IMG/VR virus record: IMGVR_UViG_3300025735_000294
Coordinates: 25,860-89,859 of that record
DNA: 64,000 nucleotides
Direction: 5' to 3' (one strand)
Source of the DNA: a virus
Taxonomy: Duplodnaviria; Caudoviricetes
This document shows, piece by piece, positions 1 to 55,116 of the stretch. A program made the position numbers and the translations under genes. Each line of letters starts with the position of its first letter. The stretch's first letter is position 1. The notes under the pieces were generated by a model that was not told the DNA's origin, made no database searches, and worked only from the letters and a program-made list of their open reading frames with translations.

Positions 1-569
1 TTGCAGGGGCTAGAACTAAAGCTGACTATATTTTTTATAACCAAAATAAATTAACGTTAATAAGCAATATTTGCCTGCCTAACATTATTAGTGCTATTTC
101 AATGGCGGAGGGATGCAGTTTACTTGAATCATTACCGGATGATTTTTTAACTGATGAAACGGATATCGAAAATCTTGAAGGGAGTTTCAGGCTTTCTGGC
201 ATAACTTCATTGCCTGTTGGTTTTTTGAAAAAAGCCGCAAAAATTAAAAGCATGTATAGAACTTTTGCCTATTGTCCTTTGAAAACTGTGGAAAGTGGAA
301 TGTTAAATTCTTGCTCGTCATCTCTGACGACTGGTGCACATATGTTCTTCTGTTGCTATGAGCTAATTTCGGATGTCAATGAAATATTTTCAGCCAATAG
401 TTATAACAATATTACCAATTCTACCTCCATGTTCAGTAATGCAATAAACGTAACTGGTAGGGGAATGCTATTGATCGAGAAAATGCCAAACTTGAAATCT
501 CATACTAACATGTTCACAAAATGCACAAAGCTTGATGATTGGGTGGAAATACCAACTGGATGGTACTGA
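1..569 (+). CDS. 3' part of a baseplate/tail-associated protein with BspA-like leucine-rich repeats (runs off the window's 5' edge)
   Basis: The frame is open from base 3 into ORF 102..569. It has ~24-aa repeats (F..C.L.SLP..FL) and the typical C-terminus NMFTKCTKLDDWVEIPTGWY. It lies directly upstream of tail-fibre gene R. Confidence 0.6.
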   Translation, partial: AGARTKADYIFYNQNKLTLISNICLPNIISAISMAEGCSLLESLPDDFLTDETDIENLEGSFRLSGITSLPVGFLKKAAKIKSMYRTFAYCPLKTVESGMLNSCSSSLTTGAHMFFCCYELISDVNEIFSANSYNNITNSTSMFSNAINVTGRGMLLIEKMPNLKSHTNMFTKCTKLDDWVEIPTGWY

Positions 570-605
570 TTATGCCAAGCCTGATTTGCTAACAGGTAAC
601 ACTCT

Positions 606-626
606 AAATCACACACTCCATACACT
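606..626 (+). promoter_or_regulatory. Late promoter motif AAATCACA-N7-TACACT upstream of R-S-U
   Basis: One of 8 copies of the same motif with fixed spacing, all upstream of virion or lysis genes. Confidence 0.7.
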
Positions 627-659
627 CCGTTGCATTAACTACTATGTAACGGAGGTTTT

Positions 660-1124
660 ATGGCTGACATCCTCGCCGTCGAAGAAGGTGGCACACTTTA
701 CAAATCTCAGCTGCTCACTTATTACTACACCCGCCGAGCCGAATCTTCAATCGGGCAGGGTGAGCGATTTTTAATAAAGCATGCCTACTGGGGTAAAACT
801 GACCTTGTAACCAAAAGTGATGGAGATGGCTGGGACATTGCCGATATACCATTAGACTTTTCTTTGGAAGATCTACAGTCTCACTTCGCAACTAATGACC
901 TGATCTGCTCCGTTCAGGGAACGACAATCGCCATTAATATTTCACTGCCAAGAGAACAGCTTGAGGCTGGATCTCGATATGACTTCAATACGCTCGTGCT
1001 AGTGGATTCAGAAGGTGAACCTTTTGCTGTCATGTGTACCCAACAGGAAACGATGTATGCGGAGAAAAGCTACAACATTTTCGTGACGATTGAACAAGTT
1101 GGGGGAACCGAAGATGACAGTTAA
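660..1124 (+). CDS. R: Tail fibre assembly/structural protein, P1 gpR-like
   Basis: 154 aa, immediately upstream of the S-like tail fibre as in P1; GGAGG RBS at 651-655. Confidence 0.7.
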   Translation: MADILAVEEGGTLYKSQLLTYYYTRRAESSIGQGERFLIKHAYWGKTDLVTKSDGDGWDIADIPLDFSLEDLQSHFATNDLICSVQGTTIAINISLPREQLEAGSRYDFNTLVLVDSEGEPFAVMCTQQETMYAEKSYNIFVTIEQVGGTEDDS

Positions 1125-2805
1125 AGTTGTTTCGATAATGTCAGCTGAAACGACCTTCCCACTATTGGCCGACGTTCAGTACATGGAGCCATATGGTTCA
1201 GCAGCATTCAACCGAAAGTTAAAGAACATTATTAGACCTGGGTTCTTCGAAGGATTCACACCAGTGCCAGGTAATGGGCTTGAACTCATCATTCGTTCTG
1301 ATAATTCCGGCGGTGCCGCGTCTGTTGACGTTAATGGATTGCAAATCACAGTACAGCAAAATAGTGATGTGAGTCTATTATTGCCGCCGGGTTCAACATC
1401 TATCATTGTGCTGGAAGCCAATTACGTACATGGAGTAAAAACGACACAGGTCGATAGCTCTTCAAGCGTTCCTGCCACTCAGATTATTGCGTTAACTGAT
1501 GATAAATTGGCTTCAAACCAGATTGAGGTTTGCCGCGTAAATATTCCTGCTGGAGCTCAGCAGATCGATGAGTCGATGATTGACCAGTCACACCGTGTTA
1601 ATCGTGGTATTGGCATCCAATTATCGAGCGAAATAGATAGTGACCGGGATGATATCGCAGCATCATCAAATGCGGTTAAAAAGCTTCACGAAATGATTTT
1701 GGGCATTGATTTTCCTGATGGCTCAACAGAGCAACCTGGTTTGGTTCAATTAAGTAGTGCAACCGATAGTGACGCTGAAGATAGAGCGGCAACACCGAAA
1801 GCGGTAAAGGTGGCAAATGATAACGCCAACGGACGCGTACCTTCAGAACGCAAAGTGAATGGCCGGGAGCTGACGGCTGATATCAGTGTAACCGCGCAGG
1901 ACATTTTCAACGGTCAGACGGTGGGGCTTGGTAGTGCGGTTGATCTAAACAGTGTTACGACTCCGGGGCTTTATTATCAGCCAGCGAATGCGCAGGCCGA
2001 ATCCGGGATGAATTACCCGGAGGCAAATGCCGGTTCGCTTGAGGTGTATAAGCATGCCGGTGTGACTCAGATTTACCGTGTCTACAACAATTCTCGCAGC
2101 TATATCCGCACCCTGTTTGACAGCGTGTGGTCCGCCTGGGCAAAGCAGTATGACGCGTCGAACAAGCCTACGCCAGCCGATATTGGCGCTTTGCCCCTAG
2201 GGGGCGGCAGGCTGACAGGAACGCTTGAGATTTATAATGGCGCACCCATCATTCAGCTCAGTGAGTCCGATACGGGCAAAAACTATTTCATTGTTGCAGA
2301 TGGTAGCGGTTTTCGTATTAACGAAGATTCTACGGCTGGAAATGCACTCCTTTCGTATGCTGGAGCGAGTAAAAAATTAGTCACTGTGGGCCAGATAGCT
2401 CCCGGTGATTGGACGAATATCGATGCGCGATACTACACAAAAGCACAATCAGATGCGGCATACATGCCGCGTACGGGGGCTTACACCAAAGCAGAATCCG
2501 ATGCTCGGTATCAGCTTACCAGCTCCGCTGATACACATGGGATTAGTGGGAAAATTTTGTGGTCGAAAAACGGGAAAACAGGCGTGATACGAATGACGGG
2601 GATAACCGATAACGTGACAAACAGTGGTCGTGTTGCATTCCCATTTGCTTTCCCAACTAAGTGCTACTCAGTGGTTGCCAATAGGCATAATTCGGATGGG
2701 CATTCGGCTGCAATGCAACCATATGATATCTCCACCTCAGGGTGGTATTTACGTATTGCCGGTGGTGGAACCGAGTCAATATCATGGACGGCAGAGGGCA
2801 TTTAA
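1114..2805 (+). CDS. S: Tail fibre protein, P1 gpS-like
   Basis: The N-terminus (LADVQYMEPY.SAAFNRK, VCRVNIPAGA, GLVQLSSATDS..E..AATPKAVK) matches the P1 S constant region. The C-terminus carries mosaic fibre modules. ATG at 1114. Confidence 0.9.
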   Translation: MTVKVVSIMSAETTFPLLADVQYMEPYGSAAFNRKLKNIIRPGFFEGFTPVPGNGLELIIRSDNSGGAASVDVNGLQITVQQNSDVSLLLPPGSTSIIVLEANYVHGVKTTQVDSSSSVPATQIIALTDDKLASNQIEVCRVNIPAGAQQIDESMIDQSHRVNRGIGIQLSSEIDSDRDDIAASSNAVKKLHEMILGIDFPDGSTEQPGLVQLSSATDSDAEDRAATPKAVKVANDNANGRVPSERKVNGRELTADISVTAQDIFNGQTVGLGSAVDLNSVTTPGLYYQPANAQAESGMNYPEANAGSLEVYKHAGVTQIYRVYNNSRSYIRTLFDSVWSAWAKQYDASNKPTPADIGALPLGGGRLTGTLEIYNGAPIIQLSESDTGKNYFIVADGSGFRINEDSTAGNALLSYAGASKKLVTVGQIAPGDWTNIDARYYTKAQSDAAYMPRTGAYTKAESDARYQLTSSADTHGISGKILWSKNGKTGVIRMTGITDNVTNSGRVAFPFAFPTKCYSVVANRHNSDGHSAAMQPYDISTSGWYLRIAGGGTESISWTAEGI

Positions 2806-2806
2806 T

Positions 2807-3235
2807 ATGGGCTATGTATACCGACCATTAACTCGTGCTTTTTACAATGATGAGTTCGAAGCTGACTATCGAAAAGCTGGGACATGGCCCGGATTTTATG
2901 TCCGTGTGTCAGATGAAGATTATCAGAAGCTAATGGATGGCCAGTCCCAAGGGAAAGTCATTGTTACAGGGGAGCGCTGTTACCCGGTTTTGGCCGATCC
3001 TGTTATTGATTGGAATGCTGAAGCCGAAGCTAAGCGAGCAATTCTGTTAGCTGAAGCAGCCACAGAAACTGCTGATTGGCGTATTGAGCTGCAACTAGAT
3101 GTCATCAGTGATGAAGACAAAGACTTGTTAATTGACTGGATGGCATACACTAAATTGCTGAAGGCGCTTCAGCTCGAATCCGTAGCAGATGAAGAGGGCT
3201 TTAAAGGAATAACCTGGCCTGCAGTGCCCGCGTAA
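2807..3235 (+). CDS. U: Tail fibre assembly chaperone (Tfa/gpU-like)
   Basis: ATG 1 nt after the S stop; Tfa motifs G.YPVLADP, WRIELQL..ISDEDK..L..WM.Y, ITWP..PA. Confidence 0.85.
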   Translation: MGYVYRPLTRAFYNDEFEADYRKAGTWPGFYVRVSDEDYQKLMDGQSQGKVIVTGERCYPVLADPVIDWNAEAEAKRAILLAEAATETADWRIELQLDVISDEDKDLLIDWMAYTKLLKALQLESVADEEGFKGITWPAVPA

Positions 3236-3239
3236 CTCC

Positions 3240-3266
3240 AGGGCGATAGAAGACTATCGCCTTTTC
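3240..3266 (+). terminator. Rho-independent terminator after U
   Basis: GGCGATAG-AAGA-CTATCGCC followed by TTTT. Confidence 0.75.
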
Positions 3267-3529
3267 TACAATTTCTGACAACCATGGTATCTCGCGGTTA
3301 TAACGCTGCAATATCTTGTATGTCTTCGATAACTAGTGACATCGGCATAATGGTTACATCATGTCCGATTTTTCGATCGCCAATAATGCAGCTAATCTCG
3401 CCAATAATTACATTATCGACGATTAATTTAGTTATATCGAACGACGTAAACCATCAACTACATATCAACCTTAGGCGCTTTCAGTACATAAAATACAAAA
3501 CACCATTCTGCATGATGCCTTAACGCTGG

Positions 3530-4965: not shown

Positions 4966-7562
4966 TGCTCGGGAATCGAATCAACATAGATACAAGAACC
5001 AGTATTGCCGATGATATTTTTGGTAAGAAGTTGGCTTTTGATGGTTATGACGCACTGGCCCTGGGCGACACAGAGGGGCTTTTACTTGAAGCGCCCAGCC
5101 TCGAAGATGTTGAAATGACATATTTGGGTACTGAGTTGCTGGCTCGCGAAGTGGGCGCCATGTTTGAAGCCATAACCACCAAACGTATTCGCCTGGCACA
5201 AACGATGCGTGCGTTTATTCGCGTCCTTAATCGGAGTTTAAACGGAACTGATATTCGCGCCGGTGCCGATGAAGCGGGCGTGGACACTCACGATAATAAT
5301 ACAGTGTCCGGGGCGATTATTGGGAAAGTAAGGAAAGTTGCAGGCGTACCGGTGATGACTGCGCTAATCCCACTGTCTGACGGTCAAACAACCAGTATTG
5401 TTTTCCACTCTCCTACCGCCGACAGCCCACGCATCAAAAATGATGATCTGCTGGTGGCATTTCAGTTTCTACTGAATAAGCGCGATGTGACTCATGTAGT
5501 GGCCCCGATTGGTGGTCGTGATGTCATGCTAAATCAAGTGTGTCAGGTACTCTCAAATCTGATTGAGCGTAATAGCGGGAAATTCAAAAAAGCACAGGAT
5601 AAGCAGAGCAAGATGCGCTCCGATATTCAGTCGCTTGAAGCGGAGGCCGATAAGCTCGAAGAAGAGCGATCTGTGCTGATTGGCCGTGTTGATGATGCTC
5701 AAATACAACTGGTAAAAGCCAAGGAGGGTTACTCTGATGCAGATGAGAAAGTCAGGTCGCAAAGAGAAATCAACGCCGACCTTACGGCATACCTGGAACA
5801 GTTGAAAAAAAATGCCGCTAACACAGTACCGAAGCGGTTCACTGAGCAGATTAGAACGGTAAAGAAACGTCTACTGGAGAGCGGTGTAACGTCGGTTGGT
5901 AATGCCCAAATTAAGACGGATGGTAATGACGTTATTATCACCACAGTAGAGGGGCAAACCTTCAAAATTACCGCAGAGGGCGGCGATCTGGATAAAGCCG
6001 CTTCAACTCTCTTAAAAGCCTACCGCAATGATACTGCTGAGCAATATCAGGTAACGGTATCGGATGATCCACAGCTGACTGAGGATGTTAAATATTTATC
6101 CTCCCTTCTGGGCATGGAAGAAGAGTATTTCCACGAAAGAATCGACTTTGGTGACGTTACGCCTGAGGTCCTGAATCAAATTGCTTCCGGCCTCAGAGCA
6201 GACCCATCAGAGAGTAACATCAAAACAGCTAAGTCCATGGCTGCTGGGGAGGTGGGCCAGAAACTATATGACAGCAATCAGGCCAAAGATGCGGCGATAC
6301 TCGATGTAAGCAAACAAGTTAAGCGAACGCCGGTGGTGATTGAAAAATGGATGGATAGATTCAACCTCACAGCTGCTGACTTGTTGGGTTATGCGAGTGT
6401 GAATGCTGCCATGGAAGGTCAAGAGAATATTAACGCCAATGACTCATGGTTATCCGAAGCAATTCGAATCAATGTAGACCCTTCTCAATACACACCTATG
6501 ATGTTGAAGGCTTACGCCAGATACGTTGAGATGTCTCGCGAAGATCGCGCTGAGTTGACACATGAACAGGTGCAGAAAGTCTATAGCGATCGACTGAAGC
6601 AGGGCATGAATCCCAATGCTACCGAAGAAGAATTGCGTCTTGATGCTGACATGTTCCTTTACTCATTTTTCGGGACAGATGAAGAGCGTGAATTCATTGA
6701 TAAGTTACGCTGGGGAAGAGTTAGTGACGAAGCGCGATCAGATATTATGGCTAAAGCTGGTCAGTTACGTGAAGAGCACAATATCGCTTTGATCCCGGAG
6801 TATACGATCAGTAATCATGACCATGAACCTCAGGAACTAGAAGTGTCGCCTGAGCCGGAAGTCGAGAAATCATCTTTCGGAGAAGGAACTTTCCAGTATG
6901 CGTTAGTAAATCGTCCTGCAGGTATTGGTGCGATACCCGAGGGGCAGATTGGTTTATTAGATCGCCCTGAAAAAGGGAGTGCCTACCACGATGTTGCTCG
7001 CCATGGTATCGCCGTATATCCCCGCCAACTGACAGATGAAGAAGTTCGTCAGTATGAGTTGAAGTATTTGCCTCCTGAGTCCGAGCAGATCGATATAGCC
7101 TCTCGATTTGTTAATGAAGCATTCAATAAGTATGCATCTGAATATCTCGAAATGGTTGAAGAGGATCGCGATACATTCGAAAAAACAGTGCGTTCGAAAT
7201 TCCGTAAACATATGGCTGGTGTAGCGTTCCCGCAAGGCGAAGCTGGCAAAGCGATGATGCAGAAAATCGTTAATGCTTTAGCTGCAATGCCAAATCAGGA
7301 ACCAGCCCCGGCAAGTAGTGAACCGCATGTTTCGGAAGCTGATGAAGCTGCTAACCAGGCATTGTCTTTCCTGAAAACCATCCCAGCCCTTGAGACAAAG
7401 GATATGGCTCAGCTGCGCGGGGTAAGAGGCCAGGTACGCGAAGCGATCACATCCCTTCAGGCAGCTGGTCGTTTTGAAGAGAATGAGTCGCTGGTGAACG
7501 ATGCAGCCCGGCACTTATCCGATCTGCTGGTGGCGATACAGCAGCAGGGAGGGGCTAATTGA
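4965..7562 (+). CDS. darA: DarA antirestriction/head morphogenesis precursor
   Basis: DarA-like N-terminus (VAGVPVMTALIPLSDGQT.SIVFHSPT, FQFLLNKRDVTHVVAP) and C-terminal FQYALVNRPAGIGAIP motif; synteny. Confidence 0.85.
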   Translation: MLGNRINIDTRTSIADDIFGKKLAFDGYDALALGDTEGLLLEAPSLEDVEMTYLGTELLAREVGAMFEAITTKRIRLAQTMRAFIRVLNRSLNGTDIRAGADEAGVDTHDNNTVSGAIIGKVRKVAGVPVMTALIPLSDGQTTSIVFHSPTADSPRIKNDDLLVAFQFLLNKRDVTHVVAPIGGRDVMLNQVCQVLSNLIERNSGKFKKAQDKQSKMRSDIQSLEAEADKLEEERSVLIGRVDDAQIQLVKAKEGYSDADEKVRSQREINADLTAYLEQLKKNAANTVPKRFTEQIRTVKKRLLESGVTSVGNAQIKTDGNDVIITTVEGQTFKITAEGGDLDKAASTLLKAYRNDTAEQYQVTVSDDPQLTEDVKYLSSLLGMEEEYFHERIDFGDVTPEVLNQIASGLRADPSESNIKTAKSMAAGEVGQKLYDSNQAKDAAILDVSKQVKRTPVVIEKWMDRFNLTAADLLGYASVNAAMEGQENINANDSWLSEAIRINVDPSQYTPMMLKAYARYVEMSREDRAELTHEQVQKVYSDRLKQGMNPNATEEELRLDADMFLYSFFGTDEEREFIDKLRWGRVSDEARSDIMAKAGQLREEHNIALIPEYTISNHDHEPQELEVSPEPEVEKSSFGEGTFQYALVNRPAGIGAIPEGQIGLLDRPEKGSAYHDVARHGIAVYPRQLTDEEVRQYELKYLPPESEQIDIASRFVNEAFNKYASEYLEMVEEDRDTFEKTVRSKFRKHMAGVAFPQGEAGKAMMQKIVNALAAMPNQEPAPASSEPHVSEADEAANQALSFLKTIPALETKDMAQLRGVRGQVREAITSLQAAGRFEENESLVNDAARHLSDLLVAIQQQGGAN

Positions 7563-23672: not shown

Positions 23673-24944
23673 ATGAAAATGAGCACTGTTTTACCACAGC
23701 AAAAAGCCGTAACTGAGGATGTCTTAGCTGCAGGGATTGAAGCGCTGCGTAGCCAAATATCTCTCGCCATGAAGCGATCTGCCGGTGATGACCTTACCGT
23801 GAGACTTTTTGAGAGTGCATTGCTCTCACTCGATAACCTGGTATCGGCTATCAACATACGATTGGACGATTCGGTTGATGAGTTTAACCGGGTTGTTGAT
23901 CTGCTAGAACAGTATCAAGAAGACATGAACACTCATCATCTGGAGGTGGTCAAGCTATGTGGCTTGGAGATGGGGCCATATAGCGAGTTAGCCGGATTAC
24001 TTGCTACCAGGCTCGAAGACCTTAAAATTCAGGTCCAGCACGCCAATAATCGCACCGACGCCTCAATGCTGATGAACGACGAGCTTAGGCGTTCCTTCAA
24101 CAAGTATAAAAAAGACTACCCTGAAAGCCTCGTAATTGACCTGCGGAGCCGTGAACGTGATAACAACAGCTTGAAGCGTGAGCGCAAGGCGCTCAAAGAG
24201 GAGATAGCTGAGCTTGGAAAAAGCCTGAGAGAACATAAGAAGAAATGCGTTCATCTTGAAAGTGATAACCTGGCTCGTGCGAAGGAAATCCAAACGTTAA
24301 AGGAAAACGATTTAGCGTTGAGAGAAACTCTTGATGAATACAGCGGCATTCGGGACAAAGTGAAATGCTTCGATATCACAAAGAACGGTGGTAACGGAGG
24401 TTTTGCCTATATCTATAGCTACCCCTTTGGCCTGGCCGCCGATGTAGGCCGTCGTCACGAAGTCATTTTAACCGCGCGTTTCCACTTTCAGATCCGGACC
24501 AGTCACCTTCTGGCCATGGATGTGATCCCAACAATATGGGGAGCTCCGTTATACAATCGGCTGAAGGATTTCGAGGAGAATTGGAACACTGAAATCGATG
24601 AAGAGCTCCACCAAAGGATCATGATGAAGCTTGAGAAGAGCTTCCCTAAGCTGCATAGGCGTATCAGTGCTTCCAAAGTGGCGAGTGTTGACGAACTAGA
24701 TATGCGTCCCACTACGCTGGTGGTCCTTAAAGCACTGGGCTTTACGACCGTCTTCAATGTTGCATCTATACCATCTACTTTCATGCCTTCCATTGAAGGG
24801 TTAGACAAACAGATGGATGAGGAGATCGTTGCTTCGGTGCGCATGTGGGCATCCAAATGGGATAAACAGAACGGAATCGTCGAAGAGCTCTATGGCATGA
24901 AAAACACGGTAACAGGGCAAGTATTTTACAAAGCCAACAAGTAA
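23673..24944 (+). CDS. PmgS-like coiled-coil protein with a C-terminal alpha-CTD-like HhH domain
   Basis: 423 aa with a long coiled coil; size and position match P1 pmgS; C-terminal SVDELDMRPTTLVVLKALGFTTV. Confidence 0.55.
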   Translation: MKMSTVLPQQKAVTEDVLAAGIEALRSQISLAMKRSAGDDLTVRLFESALLSLDNLVSAINIRLDDSVDEFNRVVDLLEQYQEDMNTHHLEVVKLCGLEMGPYSELAGLLATRLEDLKIQVQHANNRTDASMLMNDELRRSFNKYKKDYPESLVIDLRSRERDNNSLKRERKALKEEIAELGKSLREHKKKCVHLESDNLARAKEIQTLKENDLALRETLDEYSGIRDKVKCFDITKNGGNGGFAYIYSYPFGLAADVGRRHEVILTARFHFQIRTSHLLAMDVIPTIWGAPLYNRLKDFEENWNTEIDEELHQRIMMKLEKSFPKLHRRISASKVASVDELDMRPTTLVVLKALGFTTVFNVASIPSTFMPSIEGLDKQMDEEIVASVRMWASKWDKQNGIVEELYGMKNTVTGQVFYKANK

Positions 24945-24997
24945 TTAGATTTAGTATCAACAATCTAATTGAATTATCCATTTAGCAGTGTTAAATT
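24945..24997 (+). promoter_or_regulatory. Operator dyad abutting the sigma70 promoter of the RNA cluster
   Basis: TTAGATT-N10-AATCTAA (24945-24968), then TTGAAT-17 nt-TAAATT with an extended -10 TG. Confidence 0.7.
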
Positions 24998-25454
24998 TCC
25001 ACACGTTCGCTGAGGTTGGTGGACAGGGAGGCGGGAAGGAACCCAGGTATATGCAAGCCACGGTCTTTCGCCCTTACCTGATCAAAATCAAATTTAAGCA
25101 TTAGATTTTGAATCCTCCCTATACACCACGCCTCAACGGACTGCTAATACATGGCATCGCCTTCCCCTTAACTGGGAGGATGGAAAAGCAGCCATTACAG
25201 AGATGACTACAGCTCATGCGCTAAGAACCTAGTTAATGAGTCAAATACAACGGGTCGTATTGTAGTCGTCTCTGCAATGGGAGTAGGACTAGCCAGCCGG
25301 AGGTGCTTTAACACCGGCAGTGACAGCGGATTAGTGCGATGAGCCCATACTCATCTTCCTCCTTAAACCAAAGAGGGTAATCGTATTCCCTGGCAACTGA
25401 ATAGGGGGAAGTCAGAACGGAAGCGATTATGATTCTTTGTTCCGTGATATCACC

Positions 25455-25540
25455 GTTTAGCCCGCGCTAAGGGCTGTTAAGTAAAGGAATGGAATTGCTG
25501 TGTGTAGTCTTTGCCCATCTCCCACGATGGGCCTTTTTTT
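25455..25540 (+). ncRNA. rprA: RprA-like small RNA (3' seed region and terminator); 5' boundary uncertain
   Basis: GAATTGCTGTGTGTAGTCTTTGCCCATCTCCCACGATGGGC plus a U-tract (25492-25540) matches the 3' half of enterobacterial RprA as recalled. Confidence 0.75.
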
Positions 25541-25632
25541 ACACCAGCCCATAACAGGTAAGAGCATTGAGAACCGCCGAGACTGACTGAAATAAAGTTA
25601 AGTCCGTGCAAACGTCATGCAGTGCTCTTCCC

Positions 25633-25758
25633 GTTGTGGTAATGCGGCTCAGCGCTCGTGGTAATTAGTGATGCCATTGCTTTTTCCTGTGGTTTGTATA
25701 GCGCCGCTGGTGGTTTTTCACTATCCCATCCAGCAGGGGGAGGCACCCCCGCCACAAC
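25633..25758 (+). ncRNA. tRNA-shaped/C4-like RNA module A
   Basis: GTTGTGG/CCACAAC closing stem; GCG-GCTCAG-CGC hairpin; GGGGG-AGGCA-CCCCC T-like arm. Confidence 0.65.
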
Positions 25759-25972
25759 GTTCTACAGTACAAAGGATCGAAACGGGTCGCCCTCCTAATG
25801 AGAGGAGTGTTTTGAGGAAGGTGAACGACAAGTAGCCCCTCCTGTCACGGCAGTGAAAGCGGTTGATGGCTTATCCCGCTCATAGAATGCCCCGTGAGGC
25901 TAAATAAATGCCCGCCTGCTCCCCGTTAACGGAGCACCACAATCAAAACGGGTGTTAGACGCTCTTTTTGAT

Positions 25973-26098
25973 TGTGGTGAATGCGGCTAAGCGCACGCGG
26001 GGAATTGGTTTTAAATTTGAGCTCCAGTTCATAGGTAAAAACTTCCCGTCCACGGTCTAAAGCCAGCCAAAGGACACCGGGAGGCACCCGGCACCACA
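25973..26098 (+). ncRNA. tRNA-shaped/C4-like RNA module B
   Basis: TGTGGTG/CACCACA closing stem; GCG-GCTAAG-CGC hairpin; CCGGG-AGGCA-CCCGG arm. Confidence 0.7.
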
Positions 26099-26369
26099 AA
26101 CCAACACCACGCCCGGAGACGGCTAAGTAACCTGAATGGCGAAACGTCAATGTACCTGAACCGGCAATGTGTGCCGAGGACGGAAGGCATATGCCGTGAC
26201 AGCCGAGAGAGTTCGGCACACAACAGAGTGAATCATTCTTGCCTCTGGTCCGGGATCGCGACTGGTGGGGGCGGGTAGCCACACAAGCCGTAACGCGAAA
26301 CGGCCCGAGTGGAGTTAAGCGAGGAGAACCTTATCGGGGAAGTGAAACCCTGGGGGGATGGTTCACCCT

Positions 26370-26499
26370 GTTGTGGATGTAGCTCAATTGGAACAGAGCG
26401 CCCCTGAAGGGGGAGTTGAGCGCTACCTAAGGATCATAACCCAGGGTATCTCATACGGTCCGGCCGGACGTTATCCGGGTTCAAGTCCCGGCACACAAC
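26370..26499 (+). ncRNA. tRNA-like RNA (module C) with canonical D and T arms and an expanded middle
   Basis: TAGCTCAATTGGAACAGAGC D arm; CCGGG-TTCAAGT-CCCGG T arm; bulged acceptor GTTGTG(GA)TG/CACACAAC; no 7-nt anticodon loop. Confidence 0.65.
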
Positions 26500-26701
26500 C
26501 TCATAGAATCAAGTAATCATAGAATTCTGTAATCATATGAATATTTTCGAGTTCATGGACAAGAACCCAGGCCTGACATTGGCCATGATTATCGTTGTTG
26601 TCTTTGGGTTTGCTAACATCGCAAGTTCGCTCCGCCGCAAGAAGCCTTAAGCCGCCTCGTTTAGTTTTGGTTAAGTCATTGTACTTTAACCTTACGCTCC
26701 C

Positions 26702-26806
26702 TGAGGTGAATCCCCCTAAGCGGCGGGGCATATCAGCTGCGACAACACCTTGCCAATGCGAGTTCCAATGCTGTGAGGAGCTCACCGGGAGGCACCCGGC
26801 ACCTCA
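26702..26806 (+). ncRNA. tRNA-shaped/C4-like RNA module D
   Basis: TGAGGTG/CACCTCA closing stem (compensatory change relative to module B); CCGGG-AGGCA-CCCGG arm. Confidence 0.65.
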
Positions 26807-26815
26807 AACTTTCAA

Positions 26816-26889
26816 GGCCCTTTAGCTCAGTTGGTTAGAGCAATCGACTCATAATCGACAGGTCGCTGGTTCAAGTCCAGCAAGGGCCA
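26816..26889 (+). tRNA. trnI: tRNA-Ile2 (CAT anticodon; ileX/P1 trnI-like); CCA not encoded
   Basis: Full cloverleaf GGCCCTT...CTCATAA...GCTGG-TTCAAGT-CCAGC-AAGGGCC-A, followed by TCA. Confidence 0.92.
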
Positions 26890-27053
26890 TCACCTCTCTC
26901 TACTGTTTTCAAATCACATCATCCCGCTGGTGGGCGTGCACCTCTCATAGAACACATACTCACTGATACCAAATCTAAACATAAACTTTTATGCAGTTAT
27001 TAAACGTTTCCTAACTACCTACAATACCGGCAGTGTTGGTTTTTGGAGTTGTT

Positions 27054-27734
27054 ATGAGACGGATAACAAGCATGCACATTGCTGACTTAATGCTGGAAGA
27101 AAATCGCTATATGTCGATTCCAGAGATTATGGCCCTCGCTAAGCAACGACACCCTGACCTCGACATCACCCGTTGCCAGGTAACAAACATCACGAAGAGT
27201 TTTGTTAACTCAAAGTATGCATCCTGCGACTTCAAAAACGACAGATATCCAAGGCTCTACAAGCTCTACTACCTCCACAATTACACCTTCAAACCGAGGG
27301 ATGGCATTGCCAGCTCCCACCGCCGGTTCACAAAATCAGAGCTCATATGCAGCCTAGAAGTTTCTGCTTTAATGCTCCGGGAACGTCGATTCTTGACTAT
27401 CACTGAACTGACGAAAATTGCGAAAAAAGAGTACCCGAGGTTCCGTGTAGAGCGCGGGCAGGTCATGAACATAGTGAGAGCCTTCGTTTCATCTAACAAA
27501 GCGCTCTGTGAGGTTGATGCAGATGCATACCCACACAGGTACTTTCTGCGAAGCCTGAACGGGTACAAGTTCAAAGTTCGCAACCGCGATGAGCACTTAG
27601 ACATTCACAATCTTCAAGCGCCTAGCAAAGCCTCCTGTGAGGTTTTAGAGCGGGAGCGACAATTACTCAGCAACTTAGCCAAAAACATCATGGATGATTC
27701 TGCACGCCGTCGTGAGGCAGCTTGTGGCAGATAA
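27054..27734 (+). CDS. lpa: Late promoter activator Lpa-like protein with a tandemly duplicated domain
   Basis: Directly upstream of pacA as in P1; two ~75 aa internal repeats; GGAG RBS. Confidence 0.6.
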   Translation: MRRITSMHIADLMLEENRYMSIPEIMALAKQRHPDLDITRCQVTNITKSFVNSKYASCDFKNDRYPRLYKLYYLHNYTFKPRDGIASSHRRFTKSELICSLEVSALMLRERRFLTITELTKIAKKEYPRFRVERGQVMNIVRAFVSSNKALCEVDADAYPHRYFLRSLNGYKFKVRNRDEHLDIHNLQAPSKASCEVLERERQLLSNLAKNIMDDSARRREAACGR

Positions 27735-29034
27735 GGTTGAATGGGATTGGCACCTTGAGAACTTCATACGCCAGAACAAAGAGCACAAAGTAACCATAGA
27801 GGAATACTGCCGCGCTTATGAACTCACATACAGCACTGGCAGAAAAAAACTCAATAAGAAACGTGCTGCTGCAGGGGATCACTTACCTAAAAGTACCCTT
27901 AAAAAGGGGGATCAAAAGCGAAATGATCCCCCTAAAAAGATCCCCCGTAACTGCAAAGGGGATCATCCAGAAAAAACCAATACGAATAATAGGTTAGATG
28001 ATGGGAAGGGGCGAAAAGGGGTAAGCAAAAGCACTCATTTGCCATCGAGCAGCGTCAAAGTGATCCCTAAAGATGGCGTTGTTCATACCAAAAAGCCACG
28101 AGGCGGTACTAGGTTTGCCAAAGGCAACGAGCTGGGGCTTGTCACAGGCATCGGCGGGACACCGCGAGAGCAGGACGTACAGGCTGCGCTTGAAGCCCTC
28201 AGCCAAGGCGATGATACCTATCTCTTTGAGACGATTTTACGGAATGAATCACACAAGAAGCTTGTCGAAAGGGCGTTTAGTCGCACCGCAGCGCGGTTAG
28301 AAGCTGAAATAGAAGCGATGGCTAAGCCCAAGGCCAAGGAGAAAGACGAAGAGCAACAATTCGGTCCACCTCCAGACATGGTGCTGCTGAAGATGGCACT
28401 CGAAGTCGGTTATTACTTCAATGACCACCAAAGCCGTATCGCTGCTGTCATCCAGGCACGCCAGAAACTCAACTTAGACAAAGACAAGAACCAGGCCAAG
28501 GCCCTGGCAGATCGCCGTAAGCTCAATACCGAAGATTTACGCCTCGAAATGCGCCAGCAAGAGTTGGCCGATAAGCAACATGAGCGCGACCGCACACAGC
28601 AAGCCGTTACTGACGCATTGCGTATGCGTGAGAATGACGAACTGGACGACATTGGAGTAGCGGAATACATCGAGGTCCTGGGGCTTAAGGTTCCGGCGTT
28701 CCTCGCAGCTAGAGCACAAAAAGCACTGGATGGGCTCGAGCCTCCTGTATCGAATGACAGCACTGTTGATGACGATCAGATTGAGCGAGAAGCTGAAGAA
28801 TACCGTCGACGTCGAGATGAATTACCGCAGGTGCTTGAAGAACGCCGAGAAGCAGTTATTGCCATGGTGGAACAGATGGGCCAGGGCGATGTCGATTTGA
28901 CTGGAGAGCGGAAAGCAGGGGAGTTTGAGGATGATGACCCTGATTTAGATTTAGACCCCTCAGCTACCGCCGATATTTACAATGAAGAGCCAGTAGAGAT
29001 CGCCATTGAACCGCCTGATGAAGGCGATGATTAA
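27724..29034 (+). CDS. pacA: Terminase small subunit PacA
   Basis: W..H..NF....TI.EY...Y.L...T.R N-terminal HTH, AE.IE..G.KVP motif and acidic tail as in P1 PacA; GTG with GAGG RBS. Confidence 0.85.
   Translation: MADKVEWDWHLENFIRQNKEHKVTIEEYCRAYELTYSTGRKKLNKKRAAAGDHLPKSTLKKGDQKRNDPPKKIPRNCKGDHPEKTNTNNRLDDGKGRKGVSKSTHLPSSSVKVIPKDGVVHTKKPRGGTRFAKGNELGLVTGIGGTPREQDVQAALEALSQGDDTYLFETILRNESHKKLVERAFSRTAARLEAEIEAMAKPKAKEKDEEQQFGPPPDMVLLKMALEVGYYFNDHQSRIAAVIQARQKLNLDKDKNQAKALADRRKLNTEDLRLEMRQQELADKQHERDRTQQAVTDALRMRENDELDDIGVAEYIEVLGLKVPAFLAARAQKALDGLEPPVSNDSTVDDDQIEREAEEYRRRRDELPQVLEERREAVIAMVEQMGQGDVDLTGERKAGEFEDDDPDLDLDPSATADIYNEEPVEIAIEPPDEGDD
27874..28067. other. Putative pac packaging site (GATCCCC repeats inside pacA)
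   Basis: Five GATC sites in 27877-27964 embedded in GGGGATC/GATCCCC repeats, and a sixth at 28062. Confidence 0.6.
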
Positions 29035-30548
29035 TGGCTTCAGGCAAGCATAAAATAAAATGCATTACTGACGATCCGCGCTGGCGCGAGCTGGCCGTCC
29101 GTTATCGCAAGGATTACATCTCAGCCATCATTTTCTTGTTTGGCATGATGCCTTCCCACCAGCAGGAAGAAATTATTGCCTCTGTGGAGGAGGTGGGTAG
29201 CCGAACAACTGTTACTTCAGGCCACGGTACGGGTAAATCATCTTTAACAGCAATGCTTTTGCTGATTTATATGATTATGTACCCAGACGCCCGCGTCATT
29301 ATCGTTGCCAACAAGATCGGCCAGGTTAAGACCGGTGTATTCAAATATGTGAAGCAGTATTGGGGCAACGCCATTAAGCGCCATGGCTGGCTCCAAAATT
29401 ACTTTGTGCTTACCGACACCATGTTCTATGAGCGCAGCCGTAAAGGGATTTGGGAGGTCCTGTGTAAGGGCTATCGCCTGGGTAATGAAGAAGCATTAGC
29501 CGGTGAGCACGCAAAGCACATCCTTCTGATAGTGGATGAGGCTTCGGGTATCTCAGATAAGGCGCTGAGCATCATGCGCGGCGCATTAACTGAAGAAGAT
29601 AACCGTATGCTCATGCTGTCCCAGCCGACGCGCCCGACCGGTTATTTCTACGATTCTCATCATTCCCTCGCGAAGAATCCTGATAACCCTGAAGGGATTT
29701 GGAACGCTATCGTCCTCAACTCCGAGGAATCTCCTTTTGTCTCCCTTAAGTTCATCCGTGAGAAGCTCCTTGAATATGGCGGCCGTGACTCGCTTGAATA
29801 CATGGTCAAGGTTCTCGGCCAGTTCCCAAGGGAGATCTCCGGGTATCTTCTGGGCCGGGACGAGCTCGACCGTGCGGCACGCCGCCGCGTTCTGCTGGAG
29901 GCAAACTGGGGATGGGTAGCGACCGCTGACGTTGGTAACGGTCGAGATAAATCGGTGCTCAATATTTCGCGAGTATCAGGTGTACGAGGGCTGAAGCGCC
30001 GTGTTGTGTCATTTAAGCTAACAGAAATGCCTGGCACAATGGACCCGCTCGCCTTTGGTGACTACATCTATAACGAATGCTATTCAGGGAAATACCCAAA
30101 CATCACAATTGCGGTCGACAGTGATGGTGTTGGGTATGACACGGCCACTCAGATCATCCGTAGAGGGGGTAGTGTGGTGCGAATTCGCTGGGGTGCTCAC
30201 ATGTTCTCAAAAGAGGATAGGGGCCGTTTCGTTAACCAGCGAGCCTATGCAAACATCATGGCCAGAGATGCTATTAAGTCTGGGCGCATGCGCCCAGATT
30301 CCTCGCAGAAAACCGCAGAGCAGGCGTCAAAGATACCCTACCTCCTCAACGAGGCGGGGCAGATAGCAATGATGAAAAAAGAGATCATGCGACAGAAGCT
30401 TAATATCAAATCACCCGATAGATGGGATACTTTTTGCTTTACGCAGCTGGTGGATTACGTTCCTGCGAATGAAGAGACCGGTTATGATGTTGCCAGCGTT
30501 CGTAATGAAGCGCTGGCTCTTATGGATACGCCAGAATTAGATTTGTAG
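29034..30548 (+). CDS. pacB: Terminase large subunit PacB
   Basis: Walker A SGHGTGKS, Walker B LIVDEASG, nuclease ADVGNGRD and SPDRWD. Confidence 0.95.
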   Translation: MASGKHKIKCITDDPRWRELAVRYRKDYISAIIFLFGMMPSHQQEEIIASVEEVGSRTTVTSGHGTGKSSLTAMLLLIYMIMYPDARVIIVANKIGQVKTGVFKYVKQYWGNAIKRHGWLQNYFVLTDTMFYERSRKGIWEVLCKGYRLGNEEALAGEHAKHILLIVDEASGISDKALSIMRGALTEEDNRMLMLSQPTRPTGYFYDSHHSLAKNPDNPEGIWNAIVLNSEESPFVSLKFIREKLLEYGGRDSLEYMVKVLGQFPREISGYLLGRDELDRAARRRVLLEANWGWVATADVGNGRDKSVLNISRVSGVRGLKRRVVSFKLTEMPGTMDPLAFGDYIYNECYSGKYPNITIAVDSDGVGYDTATQIIRRGGSVVRIRWGAHMFSKEDRGRFVNQRAYANIMARDAIKSGRMRPDSSQKTAEQASKIPYLLNEAGQIAMMKKEIMRQKLNIKSPDRWDTFCFTQLVDYVPANEETGYDVASVRNEALALMDTPELDL

Positions 30549-50288: not shown

Positions 50289-50375
50289 CTTGTTTTATAT
50301 TCATTTCGTGGCAGCAATGCCACCGGGCGTGGAACCCCGAAAAAGTGAATAGCAGTAAAGCAGTGTCACATCACA

Positions 50376-50458
50376 ATGGTGGCACTAACAGAGAGGCTTA
50401 GCGGCCCATCGGTGATTCACGATTTCCGAAGTTCCAGCTCTGTTAGTGCCGCCGCCAT
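50376..50458 (+). ncRNA. C4/CI-type antisense RNA hairpin of the immI-like region
   Basis: The long stem GGTGGCACTAACAGAG/CTCTGTTAGTGCCGCC encloses TTCC(A/G) motifs complementary to the GGGCGTGGAA(C/A)CCCG sites at ~50326 and ~50720. Confidence 0.55.
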
Positions 50459-50495
50459 CTTTTCCAGGCGGCTCCAGCAAAACACGGAGTGACGA

Positions 50496-50666
50496 ATGGA
50501 CGTAAAGTACCTCAACACCAAGATATCTAATACCACAGGCGGTTGCTACGACTGGTCGGTACAGTTCGGAAATAAGAAGTTTACCGGTGCTCTCGATGAA
50601 GCAAAACGCTGGTTCATGACCCAAACCTGTCTGAAAGTCGAAAGAAGAAAGAAAAAAACTACTTGA
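50496..50666 (+). CDS. Small hypothetical protein, 56 aa, missing from the ORF track
   Basis: MDVKYLNTKI...YDWSVQFGNKKFTGALDEAKRWF...; GGAG RBS. Confidence 0.55.
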   Translation: MDVKYLNTKISNTTGGCYDWSVQFGNKKFTGALDEAKRWFMTQTCLKVERRKKKTT

Positions 50667-50963
50667 ATCTAACTGTCTGTAGCGTTTATGATTTTTTTAC
50701 CGTAGCAAATTCTACGGACGGGCGTGGAAACCCGGATTAAGCAAAAGGCGACACAGACGCCATAGCGTCTTTTTTTGTGTCCTTCACTATGCACACCCAT
50801 ATTCGGTAATACGTATAGAATCTATGGTGACGCTGGTGGGGCCGACTTCGGTCGGGCCGGTACCCTTTTGCGCCGGTATTTCCACCCCCATCAGCGTCAC
50901 CGCCATATTGAGCGTGGAAACTCAGGCGGTGGCCCTTCTAAAGCAAAAGAAAGGATGCCACCA

Positions 50964-54517: not shown

Positions 54518-54669
54518 ATAGCACTGTATTATACTAATATCGCTAAGAAGATAAGTTTCCCACGCTGCTACTAACTGACTTCCAACCAGTCGGTACCAGA
54601 AATGAACCCCGCCATCCAAGCGGGGTTTGTGCTATCTGGGATATAGAACGCGAACGCTAAAACAGATAA

Positions 54670-54698
54670 AGAAAAGGCCCCTAATCAGGGGCCTTTCT
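54670..54698. terminator. Bidirectional terminator
   Basis: GAAAAGGCCCC-TAATCA-GGGGCCTTTC. Confidence 0.7.
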
Positions 54699-54700
54699 CG

Positions 54701-54820
54701 CTACTTGCCAGTGATTGTAATCGACACATTCAGGGAGTTGTCAGTAATCTTCCAACCCTCTCCTTGCGGCGCTAGCAATGCACCAGTAACAACGATAAGA
54801 ACACAAATGTAATTCTTCAT
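54701..54820 (-). CDS. Possible 39 aa hydrophobic peptide
   Basis: MKNYICVLIVVTGALLAPQGEGWKITDNSLNVSITITGK ends exactly at the terminator; weak RBS. Confidence 0.35.
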   Translation of the reverse strand: MKNYICVLIVVTGALLAPQGEGWKITDNSLNVSITITGK

Positions 54821-55116
54821 TGTAAGGTCTAAACAGACCGTTTCACGGCATATTCACCGACGAAAATGACGCGAGAGCAAGTGCTACCAGCACTTGCGAG
54901 TACGGCAATGGATAATCCTTCCCAGAAGTCGGTGCCCGTTTGCGAGACGGCGAAAAGGTCCGCTGGCATTGTACCGCGAATAAAACTGAAAATTATAGGA
55001 TTCCCACAAGACAATCTGAACTTTAACTTGTTGTAGATCTGATAGTTGTGAACGTTACTAAGTTAATTTGAATACAGGATTATGGGCTTTGTGGTGGGTA
55101 CTGTTGTTCCCAGGGG

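Follow-up and report, generated by a model that had tools for sequence, protein, structure and literature searches.

STnc100 and PasD constitute one prophage small RNA (sRNA) family, in which PasD is Hfq-dependent and has been seen on Northern blots; it has many partners in data from the ligation and sequencing of interacting RNAs (RIL-seq), and a dispersed rather than tandem placement has been reported for its copies (10.64898/2026.05.13.724894; PMC8550237). Eleven STnc100 copies are expressed in enterohemorrhagic Escherichia coli EDL933 (PMC5331693), one copy is located 75 nt after stx2 (PMC12370729), and EcOnc27/sRNA103, which lies beside stx2, binds Hfq (PMC7873438); the stx2-adjacent STnc100 copy is probably EcOnc27/sRNA103. 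Hfq binding is known only for lambdoid members of the family (PMC8550237, PMC7873438), and among the literature mentioning STnc100 we found none on P1-type phages. Literature searches on RNase P or tRNA-like prophage sRNAs and on phage mimics of RprA returned nothing specific. Here, we describe a 1.9-kb stretch of virus record IMGVR_UViG_3300025735_000294, an 89,859-bp record with terminal repeats, of which a 64-kb part, hereafter the window, was analyzed. Judging from gene content, the source of the window is a P1/D6-like phage-plasmid. An original prediction, made without database searches, had seen in this stretch no credible open reading frame (ORF) and at least four modules, arranged as an array of folded RNA units that have conserved scaffolds, lying downstream of a repressor-type operator and closed by a real tRNA. 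The array, the operator, and the tRNA (at 26816-26889) all stand. The stretch is a packed island of folded RNA genes, which is real and well supported, and all of its RNA elements are co-oriented on the plus strand. It does, however, contain a 37-aa TciC-like ORF and more than four elements (Table 1).

In three of the folded units, scaffolds A, B, and D, a closing stem is combined with a GAAU junction, a small hairpin, arms that vary, and, at the 3' end, a hairpin whose loop reads AGGCA. With the Rfam model for STnc100 (RF02076, gathering score 47), D scored 61.8 bits (model positions 31-147 of 206), which is above the gathering score, B scored 38.5 bits, which is below it, and A gave no Rfam match at E ≤ 10. 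Our own covariance model R1, the construction of which is described below, scored B at 101, A at 84, and D at 65 bits and returned nothing else below E = 4.8 from the rest of the 64 kb. Based on these comparisons, A, B, and D are diverged members of the STnc100/PasD prophage small RNA family. Homologues of A in Enterobacter plasmids are 77% identical, and the closing stem shows the stepwise series U-A, U-G, C-G. B has 79% identity with a part of phage P1 (70069-70200) that carries no annotation. The three scaffolds represent three different subtypes, and the copies most similar to each of them are found in other phages and not next to it in the island; the array was therefore assembled from cassettes rather than by local duplication.

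The original prediction had noted the (G)AAT junction, the small hairpin, and the AGGCA loop common to A, B, and D; these features are real and the modules are homologous. It had also given each module an acceptor-like stem and a T-arm-like 3' hairpin and had likened the modules to C4/CI RNAs. The closing stems are real; however, the 3' hairpin loop of A, B, and D is 5 nt long and not a 7-nt T-loop, and none of the three matched the tRNA model (RF00005). Likewise, the C4 clan (RF01695, CL00128) gave no match in 24800-27100 even at E ≤ 10, though genuine C4 copies are found elsewhere in the window (79.5 bits at 50820 and 48.1 bits at 50372), and the identity indicated by Rfam was STnc100 instead. 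Rfam and the literature thus already cover part of what had been taken as a new cluster, as the core family is catalogued as STnc100/PasD. What is new are the subtypes missed by Rfam, the occurrence in P1-type phage-plasmids of an array that is punctuated by tRNAs and gated by a repressor, module C with its tRNA-like structure (described below), and a design in which a scaffold is combined with an exchangeable seed.

The single-sequence folding energies of modules A to D are unexceptional (z = -0.6 to -2.0), and a generic shape scan for a closing stem with an adjacent 3' hairpin was discarded, as its 168 matches on the plus strand of the window were no better than chance; the evidence for the modules therefore rests on homology and covariation and not on shape. 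A 3'-end pattern search returned at least 120 viral contigs, from which 60 distinct closed modules were obtained. In a MAFFT alignment of these modules, the three specified helices were 96.9% paired compared to 85.5% in shuffles, and the covariation score was 0.300 versus 0.104 (reached by 0 of 500 shuffles), values in which the closing stem was partly selected for during sequence collection. For two helices that played no part in the collection, pairing reached 97.7% and 100%, and the number of covarying pairs was three and two, respectively. R1, which was built from this alignment, also picks copies outside its training set, of which a Pantoea plasmid has one and a D6-like E. coli plasmid another three. 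When 82 distinct sequences were aligned to the model, 97.1% pairing was obtained versus 82.2%, 11 pairs were changed on both sides, and the score rose to 0.361 (0 of 500 shuffles), although such an alignment leans towards the model. A fourth helix, the hairpin just before the 3' hairpin, had a mean length of 5.8 bp versus 5.0 bp in shuffles in a poorly controlled anchored test, and its covariation was read by eye only. The stem covariation in the original prediction is thus borne out by 60 and 82 relatives that pair far above shuffles. It had described the middles of the modules as unrelated, and the interiors do differ greatly between copies.

Relatives of the scaffolds have a cassette-like distribution. 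Metagenomic phage contigs carry two to six tandem full-length STnc100 units; in locus L031, each unit, as read by eye, begins AT-rich and continues with the scaffold, its tail, and a hairpin with a T-run. The D6-like E. coli plasmid (L009, CP088384) has five scaffolds and five tRNAs in 3.3 kb (160-3330), with a 5-nt spacer between scaffold and tRNA. This array is almost wholly unannotated and also contains clamp hairpins, mini-modules closed by a GUUGUG.../...CACAAC stem, and a second sRNA whose 3' end resembles that of RprA, separated by spacers of 2-6 nt. In the Enterobacter plasmids, the blocks of the window occur in a different order and homology stops at module borders. The P1 stretch related to B (L001, NC_005856; locus coordinates 5011-5132) is an STnc100-like scaffold that scores 98 bits with R1 and 33.4 bits with Rfam, which is below threshold. 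This scaffold is located 33 nt upstream of tciA, and neither the reference record nor most P1-like records annotate it. A linkage to tciA/TerB as a general rule was rejected, as a tciA homologue is present in 5 of 120 scaffold loci; strand assignment was imperfect in this survey, which does not affect the locus count.

The 3' tails of the relatives indicate where target recognition may reside. Among 99 distinct tails, 54 have a terminator within 130 nt of the scaffold and 24 have the RprA seed GCTGTGTGTAGTC 6-27 nt after it, behind both scaffold subtypes. Chimeric sRNA genes composed of an STnc100-like scaffold, the seed GCTGTGTGTAGTC, and a terminator were seen at L005 2327-2512, at L096 9301-9490, and at ∼55 other loci. 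The Enterobacter-plasmid homologue of A, its closest relative, is fused to the RprA seed and a terminator, whereas in the window the seed unit is separate from A and located 90 nt upstream. In full-length relatives, the target-recognition sequence lies in the 3' tail, which is single-stranded and has a terminator at its end. The original prediction had instead proposed that the variable loops act as antisense guides. The longest complementarity between the variable interiors and the 89.9-kb phage genome was 12 nt, as compared to shuffled means of 11.1-11.6 and maxima of 14-15. Since the seed of the relatives lies in the 3' tail and the interiors have no complementarity above chance, the scaffold is best read, from these comparisons, as the 5' domain of an sRNA and not as a frame for internal guides.

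The tails in the window differ from this arrangement. D and B cover only positions 30-152 of the STnc100 model, in which the tail and terminator part spans 148-206. No terminator was found within 130 nt of B or D, and A is followed by a weak one only. B with its tail is co-linear with a Leclercia homologue (L007 461-695 versus window 25972-26210). D ends 8 nt before the tRNA, which is tRNA-operon spacing, and release of the array units from a longer precursor is thus plausible. A 21-nt inverted repeat (86% complementary) was also observed at 25935-25979, in which GCACCACAATCAAA, a copy of the 3' closing strand, pairs with the 5' closing strand of B. This repeat overlaps the terminator-like hairpin ahead of B, would compete with the closing stem of B, and may represent an alternative fold.

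Table 1. Features of the RNA island and its borders, in window coordinates.
Feature	Coordinates	Strand	Remarks
423-aa gene, family unassigned	23673-24944		left flank of the island
Operator dyad, 9 bp (predicted)	24943-24951 / 24962-24970		AATTAGATT / AATCTAATT; starts within the stop codon of the 423-aa gene
Weak sigma-70-like promoter (candidate)	24969-24997	+	TTGAAT at 24969-24974, 16-17 nt spacer, TTAAAT/TAAATT, TG upstream; read from the sequence
Folded leader RNA, 423 nt, family unassigned	25003-25425	+	
Second operator-like site	25099-25114		within the leader RNA; 1 mismatch
RprA-like sRNA	25426-25542	+	unrelated 5' part, then RprA seed and strong intrinsic terminator (25513-25540)
Clamp/leader hairpin	25555-25632	+	directly ahead of scaffold A
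Scaffold A	25633-25758	+	STnc100-like type II; closing stem GUUGUGG/CCACAAC; 3' hairpin GGGGG-AGGCA-CCCCC
3' tail of A	25759-25817	+	weak terminator-like hairpin 25792-25807 plus TGTTTTG; fold unexceptional (z = 0.06)
Conserved structured element, family unassigned	25804-25949	+	followed by terminator-like hairpin 25950-25970
Scaffold B	25972-26099	+	STnc100-like type I; closing stem UUGUGGUG/CACCACAA; 3' hairpin CCGGG-AGGCA-CCCGG
Tail of B	26100-26224	+	ends in hairpin TGTGTGCCGA...TCGGCACACA without U-tract; fold unexceptional
Conserved RNA element, family unassigned	26225-26369	+	long-range closing stem
Module C, tRNA-like RNA	26370-26499	+	closing stem, canonical D and T arms, short anticodon-like hairpin, ∼55 nt of extra arms
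tciC-like ORF, 37 aa	26537-26650	+	one hydrophobic helix
Scaffold D	26701-26807	+	canonical STnc100 type; small hairpin CCCCC-UAAGC-GGCGGGG
tRNA-Ile2, anticodon CAU, ileX type	26816-26889	+	ARAGORN; Rfam 72.7 bits
Operator-like site	26965-26980	-	between tRNA and lpa; 2 mismatches to the motif
lpa	27033-27734		PF25716 match; right flank of the island

In module C, the closing stem and 3' T-arm of the original prediction were confirmed, and both the D arm and the T arm are canonical. Its score with the tRNA model was 24.8 bits, below the gathering score of 29 and with 49 plus 20 inserted bases, and it was not called as a tRNA by ARAGORN. Unit-length homologues (75-93%) are present in Citrobacter, Serratia, and Salmonella phage-plasmids, and the family has 37 consensus pairs, of which 6 are compensatory. 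An alignment with the Thr and Asn tRNAs of P1 revealed no clear parent tRNA. Relatives of C have the acceptor stem GUUGUGGUG, which is also the closing stem of B and of type I scaffolds; window C and scaffold A have only the shorter GUUGUGG in common. From these comparisons, module C is a conserved, non-decoding tRNA-like family of its own, in which the D arm and T arm probably form a tRNA elbow.

Downstream of module C, the 37-aa ORF is 31% identical to P1 TciC over 35 aa (pairwise E = 1e-7). The only true tRNA among the island elements, located at the 3' end, is 83% identical to P1 trnI and 90-95% identical to E. coli genes annotated as tRNA-Ile. A tRNA-Met label, which would follow from the anticodon CAU alone, was rejected on these identities. 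Two minus-strand ORFs, 25926-26282 (118 aa) and 26501-26785 (94 aa), were considered and set aside as spurious, as they have no Pfam match and overlap conserved RNA modules. A 16-nt tandem repeat with TCATAGAA was noted at 26501-26532.

At the upstream border of the island, the dyad is probably a divalent C1-type operator, as predicted from its sequence. The extended operator motif has 20 matches in the window versus 7.7 ± 2.8 in shuffles; most of the matches fall between genes or at promoters, with sites at 25099, 26965 (upstream of lpa), 50250 (upstream of C4), and 31762, 33090, and 33992 (near the cre/c1 recombinase/repressor region). The original prediction had placed a sigma-70 promoter abutting this dyad. 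The dyad is real and its motif recurs, but the promoter candidate matches the consensus at 4+4 of 12 positions only, and a promoter scan of 24700-27200 reported no plus-strand promoter, the candidate falling below threshold. We propose this candidate by analogy with P1 Pban. In P1, the order is Op72ab/Pban, a dicF-like sRNA, two tRNAs (trnA and trnT), the STnc100-like RNA, tciABC, trnI, and then ban, and according to the GenBank record the operator controls ban, 2.6 kb downstream. By this analogy, the island corresponds to the leader of the C1-controlled ban operon of P1, placed ahead of lpa-pacAB.

Between the dyad and scaffold A are a leader, an RprA-like sRNA, and a clamp hairpin. The minimum free energy (MFE) of the leader is -151.8 versus -122.3 ± 6.3 kcal/mol in shuffles (z = -4.67, 0 of 100 shuffles), and 24990-25425 has no homologue in the plasmid collection. 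The RprA-like sRNA scores 66.1 bits with the RprA model (RF00034, gathering score 70); its 3' ∼50 nt are nearly identical to the consensus and its 5' half is poorly aligned. The clamp hairpin has an MFE of -26.5 versus -13.7 ± 2.6 (z = -5.02), and GGTAAG.../...CTTACC hairpins ahead of scaffolds in L009 and L005 are, by eye only, similar to it. Two further elements are conserved in relatives. The element at 25804-25949 is 77-85% identical in Enterobacter, Leclercia, and Pantoea phage-plasmids and has 31 consensus pairs, 5 of them compensatory in an alignment of only four sequences. The element at 26225-26369 is 95% identical in Enterobacter plasmids, and part of it is 85% identical in a Serratia plasmid.

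The closest relatives are two Enterobacter plasmids. The ORFs 27694-29034 and 29034-30548, which follow lpa, hold the positions of pacA and pacB in these relatives. Lpa is only ∼40% identical to the Lpa of D6-like plasmids, and when the protein was used as query against viral contigs no relatives were found. At 233 aa, as compared to ∼130 aa in relatives, Lpa matched its profile in two stretches, and its length is probably the result of a tandem duplication of the domain. Elsewhere in the window, a full-length match to ryfA RNA (154.6 bits) is located at 54669-54963 (-), and an immunity-region cluster at 50372-50907 (+) has two C4 RNAs on either side of an isrK match. A 9-mer, CTCATAGAA, occurs in five copies in the window versus 0.49 expected, at 25879, 26500, and 26944 (+) and at 29424 and 59200 (-). 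The three copies in the island lie inside the 25804-25949 element, directly after module C, and ∼55 nt past the tRNA before lpa, respectively.

We consider it fairly probable that the stretch is an accessory island of non-coding RNAs belonging to a repressor-controlled early operon, in which A, B, and D serve as the 5' structural domains of STnc100/PasD-type sRNAs. When the repressor is lifted, transcription would enter the island, as suggested by the annotation of P1, and part of it would read through the internal terminators. By analogy to tRNA operons in general, host nucleases might then release the folded units from one transcript, RNase P at the tRNA and RNase E elsewhere; after an RNase P cut at the tRNA, D would keep a trailer of 8 nt. 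The released units would act on host gene expression, the RprA-like RNA and A (together with its tail) as Hfq-dependent sRNAs and B, D, and C as stable structured RNAs.

Several points weigh against this explanation. The function of STnc100/PasD is not established in the literature. B and D are without the tail and terminator typical of Hfq-dependent family members, and PasD is therefore no simple guide to how they act. The strongly conserved GAAU junction, small-hairpin loop, and AGGCA loop suggest a specific partner. The promoter match is weak and a strong RprA-type terminator precedes the first scaffold unit by 90 nt, and a single transcript can therefore only be inferred.

The original prediction was that one transcript is cut by RNase P into C4/CI-like antisense RNAs, a multiplexed cassette whose guides are the variable interior loops. 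RNase P recognizes the 12-bp acceptor/T stack of its substrates. In the scaffolds, the 8-bp closing stem stacks on the 5-bp 3' hairpin without a 3'-strand spacer to give a 13-bp minihelix, which is near this length, and the units abut tRNAs and differ greatly in their interiors, all of which would fit such a cassette. However, the C4 clan is not matched at the island even though genuine C4 RNAs are found elsewhere in the window, the interiors are no more complementary to the phage genome than chance allows, the relatives carry their seed in the 3' tail, and the 3' hairpin has a 5-nt loop with no CCA after the closing stem. We therefore regard the antisense cassette as improbable. It is less probable still, and in our view very unlikely, that the scaffolds and module C are tRNA mimics, serving as decoys or sponges that occupy or misdirect tRNA-directed host enzymes, be they anticodon nucleases, other defence systems aimed at tRNAs, or processing and modification enzymes. 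Such decoys would be produced in bulk, along with phage tRNAs, from the repressor-gated array, and the conserved junction and loop nucleotides would be their recognition surface. The scaffolds are always found among phage tRNA genes, module C has canonical D and T arms and no usable anticodon arm, and the C-family relatives and type I scaffolds carry the same acceptor-stem sequence. Nonetheless, the tRNA model gives no score for A, B, or D, their variable arms contain no conserved anticodon-like 7-nt loop (judged by eye only from the alignments), many members of the family stand alone as sRNA genes that carry a seed and a terminator, and no defence or nuclease partner was identified.

The units could also act in cis, as parts of a leader that provide processing punctuation and 5'/3' protection and thereby set the stability and dosage of the downstream tciC, tRNA, and lpa-pac messages, with no function in trans. 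In P1 and D6-like plasmids, tciA follows a scaffold at a distance of 33-36 nt, D is flanked by tciC and the tRNA, neither B nor D has its own terminator, and precursors that undergo processing typically show clamp hairpins and dense packing. Against this, tciA homologues are too rare among scaffold loci for a general gene linkage, the loops and junctions are conserved far beyond the need of a mere protective hairpin, the relatives are independent sRNA genes, and lpa has its own operator-like site. A purely cis-acting role is accordingly unlikely, if less so than the two preceding alternatives, and we retain the accessory island of sRNA-type scaffolds as the preferred explanation.

STnc100/PasD RNAs rank with the most abundant small RNAs that the prophages of pathogenic E. 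coli and Salmonella encode, and the family extends, in subtypes that fall below the Rfam threshold, into P1/D6-type phage-plasmids, including the unannotated copy in P1. A portable 5' scaffold domain with exchangeable 3' tails, which often carry the RprA seed, points to phage reprogramming of host stress and biofilm control, and the packing of scaffolds, tRNA-like RNAs, and tRNAs under repressor control suggests a burst of RNA effectors upon prophage derepression. As P1 is readily handled in the laboratory, what the family does could be tested directly in this phage. For annotation, such stretches should not count as empty or as small hypothetical genes.

The island resembles several known systems to different degrees. 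The T4 tRNA cluster encodes 'species 1 and 2' (rnaC and rnaD), stable non-tRNA RNAs that are matured from tRNA precursors and have no assigned function; the likeness is by description only and the phage lineage differs. The C4 RNA of P1/P7 and the CI RNA of P4, which are known RNase P substrates, are phage RNAs whose ends pair in an acceptor-like stem, to which the modules were likened; unlike these, the modules are larger (105-130 nt, five helices), match no C4 model, and have no complementary target in the phage genome. RprA is a host sRNA that activates rpoS and represses csgD. The RprA-like sRNA of the window has a nearly identical 3' seed and terminator behind an unrelated 5' half, and, unlike in the closest relatives, where the seed unit is fused to the homologue of scaffold A, it is detached. 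The STnc100/PasD RNAs of lambdoid (Stx, Fels-1) prophages have the same multi-helix scaffold, including a CCGGG-AGGCA-CCCGG hairpin, and are likewise phage-borne; in contrast to them, the window has three subtypes in one 1.2-kb array with a tRNA, in an early operon and not in a lambdoid late region. In contrast to the Rfam STnc100 family, A and B fall outside or below the threshold and B and D are without the 3' tail and terminator. The window scaffolds are arrayed, unlike the dispersed copies of PasD (10.64898/2026.05.13.724894). The closest likeness in layout is to the P1 ban leader, which also has an operator after the upstream gene, an sRNA look-alike with a terminator, tRNA(s), an STnc100-like RNA, and tciC just ahead of a CAU tRNA-Ile2. 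The island differs from it in that it precedes lpa-pacAB and not ban, its sRNA copies RprA and not DicF, tciA and tciB are absent, and there are three scaffolds instead of one. As in P1, where C1 operators are dispersed over the genome and Op72ab/Pban directly follows dmt, the operator motif is spread over the window and the dyad lies right behind the upstream gene; the operator sequences differ and have the core ATTAGA in common.

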